From NCBI GenBank assembly GCA_016933255.1, contig JAFGBF010000002.1, positions 4,772-68,771 of the forward strand: 64,000 nucleotides of DNA, written 5' to 3'. The notes under the pieces are model-generated. The model had not been told where the DNA came from. It did no database searches and saw only the letters and a program-made list of their open reading frames with translations. This document shows, piece after piece, positions 10,205 to 18,903 of the stretch. This stretch comes from Candidatus Krumholzibacteriota bacterium. GTDB lineage: Bacteria; Krumholzibacteriota; Krumholzibacteriia; Krumholzibacteriales; Krumholzibacteriaceae. Position numbers and translations under genes: made by a program. The first letter of the stretch is position 1; each line of letters starts with the position of its first letter.

Positions 10205-12709
10205 TTGTTGAATTGGCGGATCCGGCCTTTCATCTGTTTTTATATTTATTTGATCGCTGCCGCTCTGGTCTTTTGTCTTTCGGCCACGGGCGCGGCTTCG
10301 GACAGGTATGATCCCTTCGACTCCAAAGATTCCTTTCCGGATCTCACGCCGGTAATCGGCGGAGAATTCGTCCACAACATCGGCAATCTGCAGATGAACA
10401 TAACCAACTGGGGTTTTGTCGGATCGATGCCGAACAGTTCCCTTCCGATGCGCGACTCCCCTTCAGCTCAGTATCCCGCAGGGTCAGGGATCGAATATCT
10501 CTACGCAGCCGGGATCTGGGTCGGCGCAGTCAATGGCGGGATTCCTTTCGTCTCGACAGGTTATCCCGAGACGGAATTCCGTCCGACAAGCGATCCGAAA
10601 GATACGATCTACAGAACCAGGGAAGGAGATATCCGCGGAGGACACTTTCCCTCCCACGCGGATGACGACAACGACGGGTCGTGGGACGAAGATTTTCTTA
10701 ACGGGCACGATGATGACAGTGACGGCCTGATCGACGAGGATTTCGCGGCAAGAAGCGACCAGATGTTTTCCTGTGAATATTTCGATAATGTCCCGGCTAT
10801 TTCCCTGATCTGGCCCGAGCATGAACCGATGAAGATCAGGGTACGGCAGGAGAGCTATCAGTGGGGGGAAGACCTGATGAATGATTTCGTCGGTGTGAGG
10901 TACACGATCACGAATGTCGGGTTCAACTATCTTACAGGCGTCTATGTGGGAATATACGCAGACCTCGACGCAGGGGGCAGGGACAGGGGGACCTATTACA
11001 TGGATGACCAGGTCGCCTACTGGCAGGGAATACATTGCGCCCAGAAGGGATCCGCTGAATATCCGGTCAATCTGAAGATCGCCTATGTCTATGACGATAA
11101 CGGCGACGACGGATACACTACCGGTTATTTCGGGATCCTGTTCCTCGGGCACACGACTACGGTCAACGACAACAATGCTCCCCCCTATCCCTCCAAGATC
11201 GTAGCCGGCTTCCAGACGTTCAGGGGCCTTCAGCCGTATATTAACGGGGGAGACGCGACAAATGATTTTGAGAGATATGAACTCCTTTCCAGTTCCGGAT
11301 TCGATCCTGACACGGAGGATCCCGGTGACTACAGGATCCTTCTAAGCACGGGGCCGTTCAACTACCTCTCCCCGAGGATGTCTATATATGTCGATATCGC
11401 GTTCGTAGCAGGAAGCAGTTTCGAAGATATGCTGGACAACGCGGCAACCGCCCAGATCCTCTATGACGGATGCTGGTACGATCTCGACGGCGACCCTGAG
11501 ACGGGAGCGATCGGAAGAGAGAGCCCCGTAGTCGGTCCGATAGATGATTACGACCCTGATCCGTGCGACTCAGATGGTGAAAAATTCGATGTCGCCAAAT
11601 ACGACACGATGTGGTCCAACCTCGATTGTTATTATGAGAAATGGGCCATGAACTACAGCGGCTGTTACAGGCCGTACGGAGTCGAGCCGGAATACTACAT
11701 GACAGGTATCGGCGGAAGGGAATATCAGCTTCACTGGATAACAGGAGCAGCTCCGATTTCTCCCAATATGAGAGTCGTACCCGGTGATCATAAAGTATCG
11801 GTATACTGGGATGACTTAAGCGAGGTTTCCGTCGACGTGATGACCCTTGAACACGATTTCGAGGGTTATCAGGTATGGAGAGCTGATGAGTGGCACAGGC
11901 CCCTTGGTACCAGCGAGGAAAACGGGCCGAGCCATGATCTGTGGTCGCTTCTCGACACCCGGGATCTCATAAACGGGATAACTCCCGACAAAGGTTTCAT
12001 GGGGCCGCCGGAATCAGGCGGACTGGAATATGAACCTCTCCTGCATATTCCCGATCTTGACGATTACATCAGCAGCTTTGAAATGAGTCTTACTGAATAC
12101 CCCGATGATTCTATTCCCTGCCCTCCCGAACTGACATCAGCGGAATGCGATACGCTGGAAAGGCTCGTGCTGTACAAGCTGGGCCGTGAGGGCGGAAAAC
12201 GGTATTACAAATACACTGACTACTCGGCAAAGAACGGCATGCATTATTTCTATTCTGTCACGGCGTACGATCACGAGATCAAAAACGGCCTCCCCGTGGC
12301 ACACGGAAGGTATAATTCCCCCTCGGTTAACTTTGAATATGCCGTCCCGTATTCTTCTTCACAGACAAGCGATGAATACGATGAAGAAAAGATCTACGCG
12401 GTGCCAAACCCTGTGACAGCAGAAAGTATGGCTCCATGGACACTGGGCCCCGTCAACGACGACGCTTCGGGGCTGAAGGTCGAGATCCGAAACCTGCCGG
12501 CCTGCCTATCCACTCTCCGAATATTCACTCTATCCGGAGACCTGGTATATATAATTGACCATGACGGCAGATCTGGAAACGGGACAGTCGCGTGGAACCT
12601 TGTCTCCAGAAACGGACAGGACGTGACAAGCGGGGTTTATCTTTTTTCAGTCAAACCGCATGATCGGAAGTTTTCTCAAAAAGTCGGGAAATTCGTTGTT
12701 ATTCGTTAG
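10205..12709 (+). CDS. Large secreted protein with acidic Ca-binding-like repeats and a T9SS C-terminal sorting domain
   Basis: It has an N-terminal signal peptide, with TTG as the probable start. There are DxDxDG-type acidic repeats (DDDNDGSWDEDFLNGHDDDSDGLIDEDF). The last roughly 80 aa match the T9SS C-terminal-domain pattern (AVPNPV...IYxxxG.LV.....G..G..AWN.....G..V.SGVYLFSV...K....K). Confidence 0.6.
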   Translation: MLNWRIRPFICFYIYLIAAALVFCLSATGAASDRYDPFDSKDSFPDLTPVIGGEFVHNIGNLQMNITNWGFVGSMPNSSLPMRDSPSAQYPAGSGIEYLYAAGIWVGAVNGGIPFVSTGYPETEFRPTSDPKDTIYRTREGDIRGGHFPSHADDDNDGSWDEDFLNGHDDDSDGLIDEDFAARSDQMFSCEYFDNVPAISLIWPEHEPMKIRVRQESYQWGEDLMNDFVGVRYTITNVGFNYLTGVYVGIYADLDAGGRDRGTYYMDDQVAYWQGIHCAQKGSAEYPVNLKIAYVYDDNGDDGYTTGYFGILFLGHTTTVNDNNAPPYPSKIVAGFQTFRGLQPYINGGDATNDFERYELLSSSGFDPDTEDPGDYRILLSTGPFNYLSPRMSIYVDIAFVAGSSFEDMLDNAATAQILYDGCWYDLDGDPETGAIGRESPVVGPIDDYDPDPCDSDGEKFDVAKYDTMWSNLDCYYEKWAMNYSGCYRPYGVEPEYYMTGIGGREYQLHWITGAAPISPNMRVVPGDHKVSVYWDDLSEVSVDVMTLEHDFEGYQVWRADEWHRPLGTSEENGPSHDLWSLLDTRDLINGITPDKGFMGPPESGGLEYEPLLHIPDLDDYISSFEMSLTEYPDDSIPCPPELTSAECDTLERLVLYKLGREGGKRYYKYTDYSAKNGMHYFYSVTAYDHEIKNGLPVAHGRYNSPSVNFEYAVPYSSSQTSDEYDEEKIYAVPNPVTAESMAPWTLGPVNDDASGLKVEIRNLPACLSTLRIFTLSGDLVYIIDHDGRSGNGTVAWNLVSRNGQDVTSGVYLFSVKPHDRKFSQKVGKFVVIR

Positions 12710-14964: not shown

Positions 14965-15032
14965 AATGGCTTGACAGCCGTTCAAACCGCTGATACGATA
15001 CGGATCGCAATCATAGTTTCAGGCGCTCTATA

Positions 15033-15237
15033 TGATCAAAAGGGGAAGAGGGTGTGATTCCCTCACGGACCCGCCACTGTGATTGGCCTGTCCCGTGCCG
15101 CTGCTCTTGAAGCGGGCGTTAATACGCGATAGGCCATAAGTCAGGATACCTGCCTGAGACACACTTTGTCCCTGGACCTCTTCGAGGAATGAGAGGATAG
15201 GGAGAGGCTGACACCCCCTCCACCTTTTTTTCCAAAA
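15033..15237 (+). promoter_or_regulatory. Cobalamin (adenosylcobalamin/B12) riboswitch with a terminator expression platform
   Basis: The conserved core AAGGGGAAGAGGGTGTGATTCCCTCACGGACCCGCCACTGT is at 15037-15080. The B12 box AGTCAGGATACCTGCC is at 15139-15154. An intrinsic terminator follows: the stem GGAGAGG/CCCCTCC (15201-15221) plus a 7-T run (15225-15231), about 110 nt upstream of the receptor ATG. Confidence 0.8.
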
Positions 15238-15340
15238 AGGACCGGAGGGTTTTCTGTATCCCCCGGCCAAGAACTGGATCCTCTTTTGTTCTTCGATGAG
15301 ATTCTGCTTTGCGTTTCGGCTTCGGGCCGGTTGGAGCAGT

Positions 15341-17479
15341 ATGAAGGTGACTCGGAACAGACACCTCTTTTTGGCGGGGATCATCACGCTTTGCGCGATA
15401 CTTCTGTTTCCGCAAGCATGCAAAGGAAAAGGGGACAAAAACCGGCCGGACGGCGGCGCTAAAAAGAACGGGGCCCGGCTCAAAGAAGCCCCCCCAAAGA
15501 GCAGCTCGATTCCGGACACCCTCTTTTTTGCCCCCGAGATCATAGTCGAAGGCTTCTATATATCCCCTGAGAAAGAAATATTCAACCGAAGCGGCTTTGT
15601 CGGCTTGATAGAACTGAATAATAAAACGACCGCGATCGAGGATGCCGCCGATATCCTTTCCAGGACTGTCGGAGTCAAGGTCAACCAATACGGCGGCCTG
15701 GGTTCTTTCGCTACCATGTCGATACGGGGATCATCTTCGACGCAGGTGCAGGTCTATATAGACGGAGTCCCGCTGAATGACGCATATTCGGGGTTCACCG
15801 ACCTGTCTGACCTTTCCCTTGATGATATCGGAAAGATAGAAGTCTACCGGGGATTCAGCCCGACAGGGTTCGGAGCATCCTCTGTGGGCGGCACGGTAAA
15901 CCTTGTTCCAGGCTCCAGCCTGGCCGATGGAAAAGGAAAGGCCCCCGCTGCCCTGACAGCGTCGGCATCATCGGGTTCGTTCGGCACGAGGAAGTATTCC
16001 ACGGCATTCGATCTCAACAACTCCATTTTCAGTATGCACGCGCATGGCGGATATATGGAGAGCAGGGGAGATTTTTCATTCCTCGATGACAACGCGACGC
16101 CTGAGAACCTTCTCGATGACGAGATCGCCGCGCGTGAAAACAACGATTTTACGAAATGGAACATAGCCGGAAAACTTGATCTTGAAATGCCCGGGTTCAG
16201 GGCCTTATCGCTGAACCACAGCAGCGTGATCCGCGAGGGCGGCGTTCCCGGGATCGGGGCTGACCAGTCTTCCAGGGCGCGCCTGGAGCGCGATCGCCGA
16301 ATCTCATGGCTGAAGATCAAACCGGAGACCTGTTTTACGGGTTCGCTGCAGACAGACGCGACAGTCTTCTATTCCTCGACAGCCGAATCGTTCTTCGACC
16401 CGGGAGGAGAAATCGACCTCACCGTTCAAAAAACCGACAACAGGATCATATCTTTCGGAAGCAATCTGAAAACAGGATACGCCCCGGATTTTATGCCGCT
16501 GTCGATAGAGGCTTTTCTTGAGGGGAAAAAAGAAAGATTCCACCCCGTAGAATATCTGCCGATATACCAGAGCGGCCCCGACAGAAAGAGAGAGACACTG
16601 ACCTTTGCATCATCAGGCGACCTTTCTTTTTTCGATGAAAGGGTCATTGTCACGTACGGCCACCGGTGGGAATGGTATACAAGTGAATTCTATGATGAGC
16701 CTTTTTTCCCGTGGCTTCCGCCGACTCCTCTGGGGAAGATCTCGGGAAGGAAAGATTCGCCGGGAGCCGGCATGAGACTTCGGCCGTTTCAGTACCTTAC
16801 GATCAAAGGGAATATCGGCCGCTACTACAGGGTCCCGACATTCTTCGAGATGTTCGGCAATCTGGGCAGCGTCACGGGAGATTCCGGACTCAAACCGGAG
16901 AGCGGCCTCAACCGGGATATCGGGATCATCCTTTCGGCAGACAGATTCTGGGGGATCGGAAATCCCTTCCTCGAAGCCATATACCTCTACAACGAGATCG
17001 ACGACCTTATACTCTTCTTTCCCAATTCGCAATCGACCGTTAAGCCTGAAAACATCGGATCGGCGAGGATCAGGGGGATCGAACTTTCCACCGCCGGGAC
17101 TATTCCGGGATCGCTGAGGCTGTCGGGAAATTACTGCTGGCTGGAAAGCACCGACACGGGGCCGATACCGTATTATAACGGGAACAGCCTGCCGGCAAGA
17201 CCGGAGCATGAGACTTCCGCCGCGATAGAATACCTGGGGAAGATGTGGAGCGCCTCCTGGGAACTCCACTACACAGGGACGAATTTTCTCGACAGGGCGA
17301 ACGGTAAAATGGTGGACGGCCGGACGATCCATAATCTGAACCTCACTCTCAAGTCTGTCATTGAAGATATGACTTTAACTATAGAAGGACTGAATATCGG
17401 TGACGAGCGGGCCAGCGACGTGGCTGGGTTCCCTCTTCCCGGCAGGAGTTTTTACGTATCGGTCAGGTACCGGCTTTAG
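15341..17479 (+). CDS. TonB-dependent outer-membrane receptor (riboswitch-controlled, BtuB-like)
   Basis: It has a signal peptide and a plug domain (DAADILSRTVGVKVNQYGGLGSFATMSIRGSSSTQVQVYIDGVPLND), then a long beta-barrel. The true start is the ATG at 15341, after GGAG. Confidence 0.85.
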   Translation: MKVTRNRHLFLAGIITLCAILLFPQACKGKGDKNRPDGGAKKNGARLKEAPPKSSSIPDTLFFAPEIIVEGFYISPEKEIFNRSGFVGLIELNNKTTAIEDAADILSRTVGVKVNQYGGLGSFATMSIRGSSSTQVQVYIDGVPLNDAYSGFTDLSDLSLDDIGKIEVYRGFSPTGFGASSVGGTVNLVPGSSLADGKGKAPAALTASASSGSFGTRKYSTAFDLNNSIFSMHAHGGYMESRGDFSFLDDNATPENLLDDEIAARENNDFTKWNIAGKLDLEMPGFRALSLNHSSVIREGGVPGIGADQSSRARLERDRRISWLKIKPETCFTGSLQTDATVFYSSTAESFFDPGGEIDLTVQKTDNRIISFGSNLKTGYAPDFMPLSIEAFLEGKKERFHPVEYLPIYQSGPDRKRETLTFASSGDLSFFDERVIVTYGHRWEWYTSEFYDEPFFPWLPPTPLGKISGRKDSPGAGMRLRPFQYLTIKGNIGRYYRVPTFFEMFGNLGSVTGDSGLKPESGLNRDIGIILSADRFWGIGNPFLEAIYLYNEIDDLILFFPNSQSTVKPENIGSARIRGIELSTAGTIPGSLRLSGNYCWLESTDTGPIPYYNGNSLPARPEHETSAAIEYLGKMWSASWELHYTGTNFLDRANGKMVDGRTIHNLNLTLKSVIEDMTLTIEGLNIGDERASDVAGFPLPGRSFYVSVRYRL

Positions 17480-17490
17480 GGAGGCTTAGT

Positions 17491-18903
17491 ATGGTCCGAG
17501 ATCTGAAATCATTGGCGATCCTCACTCTTTCACTCTGCTGCACGGCAGCATTCGGCGTCGCCTCGCCCTCAGCGGCTGAATATGCGTTCATAACGACTTC
17601 AGACTACGAGACGGGATCGGCGGCCGAGATCCTGCTCGATAGTTCATATACCACTCACACGGATGTCGCAGATATCCACAGCGACGCAGTGGCCAGATGG
17701 TATAACGGGTTGATCTATGTCGTAAACAGAGGGGGCGACAATATTCAGGTCCTTGACCCTGAAGACGGATTTTCCACGCTGAGGCAGTATTCGACGGGAA
17801 ACGGGACAAATCCGCAGGACATAGCCTTTCGCTCGGAGACAAAGGCGTATATCTCGAGCTTCGACACTAACGAACTGCTCATAATGAACACCGTCACAGG
17901 GGAAATAACAGGCAGTATCGATCTTTCTTCATTCGCCGACAGTGATGGACTCTGCGAGATGGCATATATCTTTATCAAGCATGACATCCTGTTTGCCGCC
18001 ATTCAGAGGATCGACCGCAACAACTACTGGGGGCCGGTCGGCGACAGCTATATCGCGGTCGTTGACTGCGCCGCCGACACGCTGATAGATTGCGACCCGG
18101 TTACTCCCGGCCTGCAGTCGATAGCGCTTACCGGCACGAATCCATTCTCCGAGATCCGGTTCGATCCTGTTTCGCAAAAGCTGCATCTTTCCTGCGTCGG
18201 ATGGTGGGGGATGCAGGACGGCGGCATAGAGATCGTAAATCCATATACCTTTCAGTCTGAAGGGTACCTTTTGACCGAAGCTGCGGCGGGAGGAGATATC
18301 AACGACTTCGATATCCTGGGCGCCGAAAAAGGGTACGCGATCGTCACGAACTCGATTTTCCATACCGAGCTGATAAGTTTCGACCCGGCGGCCGGGATCA
18401 AGATAGCGACCCTCTATTCGCCTGGCGCCTATGTGATAAATGATATCGAGCTCTCGCCATACGGCGAGCTTTTCCTCGCCGATCAGACTCCGACAGATCC
18501 CGGGATCCGTATCTTCGACACCGGGACGGACTCCGAGATCACGTCATCTCCCCTATACACCGGGCTGCCTCCCTTCGACATCTGTTTCAGCATCCCATCG
18601 TACGCAGGCGCAGGCGAGACCCCGCCCGCGACATTCATCGGGCAGAACTATCCGAATCCCTTCAATCCGGCGACGACGATCCCTTTCTCTATCAGCAGGT
18701 CACAGGCGGTTAATATCGCGATCTATGACCCATCCGGCAGAAAGATCCGGGAACTCACATCGCGCTTCTATGAAGCGGGAACTCATAAAGTCGAGTGGGA
18801 CGGGAAAAACGATGGTGGCTGTCCCGCATCCAGCGGAATATATTTTGCGAGATTTTCAAGCGGCGGGTTCTCTGATTCGAAGAAGCTGATCCTTCTGAAG
18901 TAG
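17491..18903 (+). CDS. Secreted beta-propeller-like protein with a T9SS C-terminal domain (candidate surface B12-capture protein)
   Basis: It has a signal peptide and YVTN-like propeller motifs (YVVNRGGDNIQVLDPEDG, LFLADQTPTDPGIRIFDTG). The canonical T9SS tail is GQNYPNPFNPATTIPFSI...IAIYDPSGRKIREL...HKVEWDGKNDGGCPASSGIYFARF...KKLILLK. It starts 12 nt after the receptor stop. Confidence 0.55.
   Translation: MVRDLKSLAILTLSLCCTAAFGVASPSAAEYAFITTSDYETGSAAEILLDSSYTTHTDVADIHSDAVARWYNGLIYVVNRGGDNIQVLDPEDGFSTLRQYSTGNGTNPQDIAFRSETKAYISSFDTNELLIMNTVTGEITGSIDLSSFADSDGLCEMAYIFIKHDILFAAIQRIDRNNYWGPVGDSYIAVVDCAADTLIDCDPVTPGLQSIALTGTNPFSEIRFDPVSQKLHLSCVGWWGMQDGGIEIVNPYTFQSEGYLLTEAAAGGDINDFDILGAEKGYAIVTNSIFHTELISFDPAAGIKIATLYSPGAYVINDIELSPYGELFLADQTPTDPGIRIFDTGTDSEITSSPLYTGLPPFDICFSIPSYAGAGETPPATFIGQNYPNPFNPATTIPFSISRSQAVNIAIYDPSGRKIRELTSRFYEAGTHKVEWDGKNDGGCPASSGIYFARFSSGGFSDSKKLILLK

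Follow-up and report, generated by a model that had tools for sequence, protein, structure and literature searches.

A riboswitch-controlled, probable corrinoid uptake locus of a Krumholzibacteriota bacterium pairs a BtuB-like receptor with a distant BtuG homologue carrying a T9SS-type tail

Introduction

How could a bacterium display a vitamin B12-capturing protein at its surface when that protein has no lipid anchor? The question is raised by a locus of Candidatus Krumholzibacteriota bacterium (assembly GCA_016933255.1, contig JAFGBF010000002.1, positions 4,772-68,771 of the forward strand; all coordinates below refer to this 64-kb stretch, called the window), in which a TonB-dependent receptor gene is followed by the gene of a 470-aa protein. 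BtuG is by definition a lipoprotein, with Cys32 and an export signal, and has been described as exclusive to Bacteroidetes (PMC6143338), whereas the 470-aa protein belongs to a family found in Krumholzibacteriota and Latescibacterota. An initial annotation of the locus had proposed that a propeller protein occupies the position of BtuG and that a type IX secretion system (T9SS) tail replaces lipidation.

Results

A cobalamin riboswitch precedes a BtuB-like receptor gene

The leader of the locus contains a cobalamin riboswitch aptamer (RF00174, 15004..15171, + strand), which the covariance model recognizes over its full length (1-189) with 63.8 bits, against a gathering threshold of 31.5, and an E-value of 2e-13. 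The core strings GGTGTGATTCC and GCCACTG that had suggested this assignment are legible in the sequence, as is the B12 box AGTCAGGATACCTGCC at about 15140-15155; the place of the riboswitch was thus correctly recognized, although the aptamer begins 29 nt upstream of the start first given. A candidate sigma-70-like promoter, proposed from its match to the consensus only (14971..14999, +; TTGACA, 17 nt, TACGAT), ends 5 nt upstream of the aptamer. It has 10 of 12 consensus matches and a TG preceding the -10 hexamer, and the consensus scan returned 2 sites where 0.3 were expected from shuffled sequences. Downstream of the aptamer, the centroid structure contains a hairpin (15216-15249, stem CCCUCC.ACCUUU...AAAGGA..GGAGGG) followed by UUUUCUGU, which together would form the expression platform (15216..15257, +). 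The intrinsic terminator previously read here is plausible as a hairpin, but a simple terminator scan did not call the hairpin and the whole leader folds no better than its shuffles (z = -0.21).

Directly downstream of the riboswitch lies, as annotated, a TonB-dependent outer-membrane receptor (15296..17479, +; 727 aa from the first ATG), whose true start is likely to be the ATG at 15342 (MKVTRNRHLFLAG..., MKVTRNRH...). It combines a Plug domain (PF07715, 65 bits) and a β-barrel domain (TonB_dep_Rec_b-barrel, PF00593, 122 bits), and its best PDB sequence match is the BtuB1 of B. thetaiotaomicron (8BLW, E 2e-21), followed by BtuB3, BtuB2 and the E. coli BtuB. The BtuB equivalog models, which are centred on proteobacterial BtuB, score the receptor far below their cut-offs (TIGR01779, 105.8 against 599.7 bits; NF007926, 72.9 against 836). 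E. coli-type btuB, which encodes a TonB-dependent B12 receptor, likewise lies behind an RF00174 leader. The E. coli BtuB, however, needs no surface accessory protein, whereas in this locus the translation of a second gene is coupled to that of the receptor gene. The junction reads TAG-GGAGG-CTTAGT-ATG: the Shine-Dalgarno sequence GGAGG (17480..17484, +) abuts the stop codon of the receptor and stands 6 nt from the next ATG, and therefore indicates a single operon. The 470-aa gene does follow the receptor immediately, at a spacing of 11 nt rather than 12. The riboswitch, the receptor and the junction support a riboswitch-controlled corrinoid (vitamin B12) uptake operon, while the absence of btuFCD genes from the locus speaks against it.

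The second gene encodes a BtuG-type propeller

The 470-aa protein (17491-18903, +) begins with a Sec signal peptide, continues into a seven-bladed propeller and, past a linker of about 20 aa, ends in a C-terminal domain. The signal peptide, read by eye, is of type I and without lipobox (aa 1-29, cleaved between ...SPSAA and EYAF; 17491..17577, +), in agreement with the secretion first proposed. In the 40 family members whose N-termini were read in the same way, a hydrophobic stretch ends at an A-x-A-like site, the propeller begins 2-4 aa past the cleavage site, and neither a conserved Cys nor a lipobox is found. Structure prediction gives a seven-bladed β-propeller for aa 30-366 (17578..18588, +), whose nearest solved structures are those of BtuG. 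The propeller is thus borne out by the structure prediction, and its YVTN repeats are weaker than first stated, the TIGR02276 match being below threshold (15 against 27.85 bits). The linker (aa 367-386; 18589..18648, +), delimited from the predicted structure and from the linker lengths in the family, is disordered, with a pLDDT below 50 at aa 371-389, and measures 19-21 aa in 30 of 32 family members.

Pfam has no match to the propeller domain of the 470-aa protein, and the BtuG model PF16819 (DUF5074) matches neither this protein nor any of the 40 family members at E <= 1. A profile built from these 40 members nevertheless finds the BtuG3 and BtuG2 chains as its best PDB sequence matches (E 2.4e-7; identities of the entries from PMC10404256), and hhalign against BtuG2/3 gives a probability of 95% (E 3e-8). 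In the comparison of the predicted structure by Foldseek, the best 14 matches are all BtuG (E 5e-16, TM 0.75-0.81). The two families are moreover linked by a protein of a Balneolales MAG (L022:2884-4209), which scores 61 bits with PF16819 and 36.6 bits with the T9SS tail model PF18962 and which BLASTP relates both to BtuG2 (E 4e-28) and to the 470-aa protein (E 7e-25; 25% identity across the full length). Its locus has the order riboswitch, receptor, propeller, and then cobT. Together, the profile, the hhalign alignment and this bridge protein show the propeller to be a distant homologue of BtuG, which goes beyond the BtuG-like position first proposed.

Other proteins of Balneolales, Cyclonatronaceae and Rhodothermaceae join PF16819 and PF18962 (for instance P0186 of Cyclonatronum proteinivorum and P0206 of Gracilimonas mengyeensis). 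Like the 470-aa protein, they consist of a signal peptide, a BtuG-type propeller, a linker and a T9SS tail; unlike it, their propeller passes the BtuG Pfam model and lies nearer to the Bacteroides BtuG (28% identity). Their database labels, 'T9SS type A sorting domain-containing protein' or 'DUF5074 domain-containing protein', are automatic, and our literature search found no functional description of them.

The BtuG proteins of B. thetaiotaomicron (BtuG1, BT1954/BtuG2 and BT2095/BtuG3; PF16819/DUF5074) thus share with the 470-aa protein a detectable sequence homology, a cobalamin-riboswitch-controlled locus that includes a BtuB-type transporter gene, and a flexible tether of about 20 residues that joins the propeller to its anchoring element. 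The identity is only about 15-17%, and the family has invariant insertions, IQRLDRNNxW and FADxDGLCEM, that BtuG2 lacks. In contrast to BtuG, the 470-aa protein has no N-terminal Cys and no lipoprotein export signal, and combines a type I signal peptide with a C-terminal T9SS type A sorting domain. The C-terminal sorting domain replaces the N-terminal lipoprotein signal, and the tether therefore lies C-terminal rather than N-terminal to the propeller.

The C-terminal domain resembles T9SS sorting domains

The C-terminal domain (aa 387-470 and the stop codon; 18649..18903, +) carries the motifs NYPNPFNP ... IYDPSGRKI ... SGIYFARF ... KKLILLK, and its predicted structure has six to seven β strands. 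Over aa 387-467 it passes both curated cut-offs, with 37.1 bits for TIGR04183 (cut-off 23) and 28.9 bits for PF18962, Por_Secre_tail (cut-off 27), so that the T9SS C-terminal domain of the initial annotation holds. PF18962 is matched by all 40 family members (best 1.8e-8) at a permissive threshold of E <= 1. As in T9SS type A cargo (RgpB and HBP35 of P. gingivalis, and the PorU and PorZ domains), there is a Sec signal peptide at the N-terminus and, at the C-terminus, an Ig-like domain of some 80 aa that exceeds the cut-offs, with the motifs IYDxxGRxV and SGIYF and a final K-x-x-x-x-K/R. Known cargoes differ in being mainly proteases, adhesins and glycanases; we know of no T9SS cargo, and the literature search found none, that captures the ligand for a vitamin TonB-dependent transporter as its partner. 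A second tail-bearing protein is encoded in the window at 10205-12709.

The tail domain alone is no proof of the secretion route, because the same C-terminus also matches FlgD_ig, with a higher score than Por_Secre_tail (33.5 bits), and because a scan of genome contigs found similar NYPNPFNP-type tails in genomes labelled Poribacteria, Armatimonadota, Acidoferrum and Alphaproteobacteria, phyla not known for T9SS. Accordingly, in a B12 operon that still encodes a B12-related propeller, the C-terminal domain could serve structure or adhesion as an Ig-like module of the FlgD type and not be a T9SS signal in this lineage; the protein would then be periplasmic, acting perhaps as a soluble shuttle for corrinoids in place of BtuF, for which the locus has no gene, or would be released in some other way. 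This would agree with the ORFs of the 64-kb window, none of which is a T9SS core gene (porK/L/M/N, sov/sprA, porU/V, PorZ), and the literature search returned nothing documenting T9SS in Krumholzibacteriota or Latescibacterota. It would also agree with the family members that carry a lipobox in non-FCB phyla (L008, L105-L109): lipoproteins outside Bacteroidota are usually oriented to the inner leaflet, and these variants could face the periplasm.

We nevertheless hold the FlgD-type module to be unlikely. TIGR04183 is cleared by a wide margin, and once FlgD is set aside the solved structures closest to the tail, which a PDB sequence search also matches, are the C-terminal domains of PorU and PorZ. 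The fixed length of the linker is more what one would expect of a tether than of two domains joined passively. Krumholzibacteriota and Latescibacterota are both members of the FCB group. T9SS has been reported in this group: Bacteroides spp., in which BtuG is a lipoprotein, are reported to lack it, but other FCB phyla may have it, Rhodothermota being named among them and Roseithermus being one of the species studied experimentally (PMC11285876). The homologous BtuG does its work on the cell surface; Balneolales and Rhodothermaceae are the sources of the bridge proteins.

The B12-contact residues of BtuG2 are partly conserved

The B12 contacts of BtuG2 comprise E55, F58, Q93, N107, S131, S195, Y196, Q219, Y239, W272, Y316 and Y335 (PMC13616437). 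Conservative equivalents were found in the 470-aa protein for only about 4-5 of the 13 BtuG2 positions examined, in alignments by hhalign and MAFFT that differ in two loops, around W194 and Q219. F58, S131, Y239 and Q219 correspond to the invariant Y39, N107, W239 and Q209, and E55 adjoins the invariant D38 of the family; Q93, S195/Y196, W272, Y316 and Y335 are unconserved. The lack of conservation at most of the positions examined, together with the invariant motifs that the family does not share with BtuG2, would fit a receptor accessory without high-affinity corrinoid binding of its own, either a structural lid or stabilizer of the transporter or a lactonase/YncE-like propeller enzyme acting on a B12-related substrate. 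We judge such a role improbable. Accepted PF16819 members themselves differ in their B12 contacts, the four invariant polar or aromatic residues align with binding positions of BtuG2, and the closest matches in sequence and in structure are BtuG and not enzymes. The propeller is strongly acidic (net charge -36) and resembles in this the surface of BtuG2, which is acidic and attracts B12 (PMC13616437). A riboswitch-controlled receptor, finally, accompanies the propeller at nearly all informative loci.

The gene order recurs in relatives, most of which carry the tail

Three close homologues, from Latescibacterota and Krumholzibacteriota, have the same order of riboswitch, receptor and propeller gene. 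Of 80 metagenomic loci, 60 are informative, and in 59 of these the receptor gene immediately precedes the propeller gene. RF00174 is present in 36 of the 40 loci scanned, the leader sequence being missing in three of the four negatives, and in 5/6 other loci checked. The link to B12 is therefore no one-off, since the arrangement recurs in dozens of loci. The idea that an unrelated secreted propeller merely happens to lie downstream of a B12 receptor, for which only the missing Pfam match of the N-terminal domain speaks, is effectively refuted by these synteny statistics and stands also against the short junction with its Shine-Dalgarno sequence and the BtuG homology, and we give it almost no credence.

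A T9SS tail is found in 63 of 77 family members; others have a lipobox, or a dockerin-like module at the N-terminus. Of the 63 tail-bearing metagenomic members, only 2 show a lipobox-like pattern, in line with the proposed replacement of lipidation by a T9SS-type tail.

Discussion

The model that we favour, and which we consider rather probable as a whole, is that of a riboswitch-controlled B12 operon with a T9SS-delivered, surface-tethered corrinoid catcher of the BtuG type. When B12 is scarce, the cobalamin riboswitch would permit the transcription and the translation of two co-translated genes. The product of the first would be a BtuB-like TonB-dependent transporter of the outer membrane, and that of the second a divergent BtuG-type propeller exported by Sec through its type I signal peptide. 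The propeller would then cross the outer membrane via the type IX secretion system, on which its delivery would depend, using its type A C-terminal domain. By analogy with type A cargo, the tail would be removed, and the C-terminus created in this way, with which the tether of about 20 residues ends, would be attached to the cell surface. There, as proposed by analogy with the N-terminally lipidated BtuG of Bacteroides, the acidic propeller would capture corrinoids and pass them to the transporter, on which it may dock like a lid.

We found no paper that ties BtuG or DUF5074 to T9SS, and the literature thus agrees with the suggestion that this deployment is undescribed. Our observations point to the T9SS tail, in place of a lipid anchor, as a second and so far undescribed way by which a B12 catcher may be displayed at the bacterial surface.

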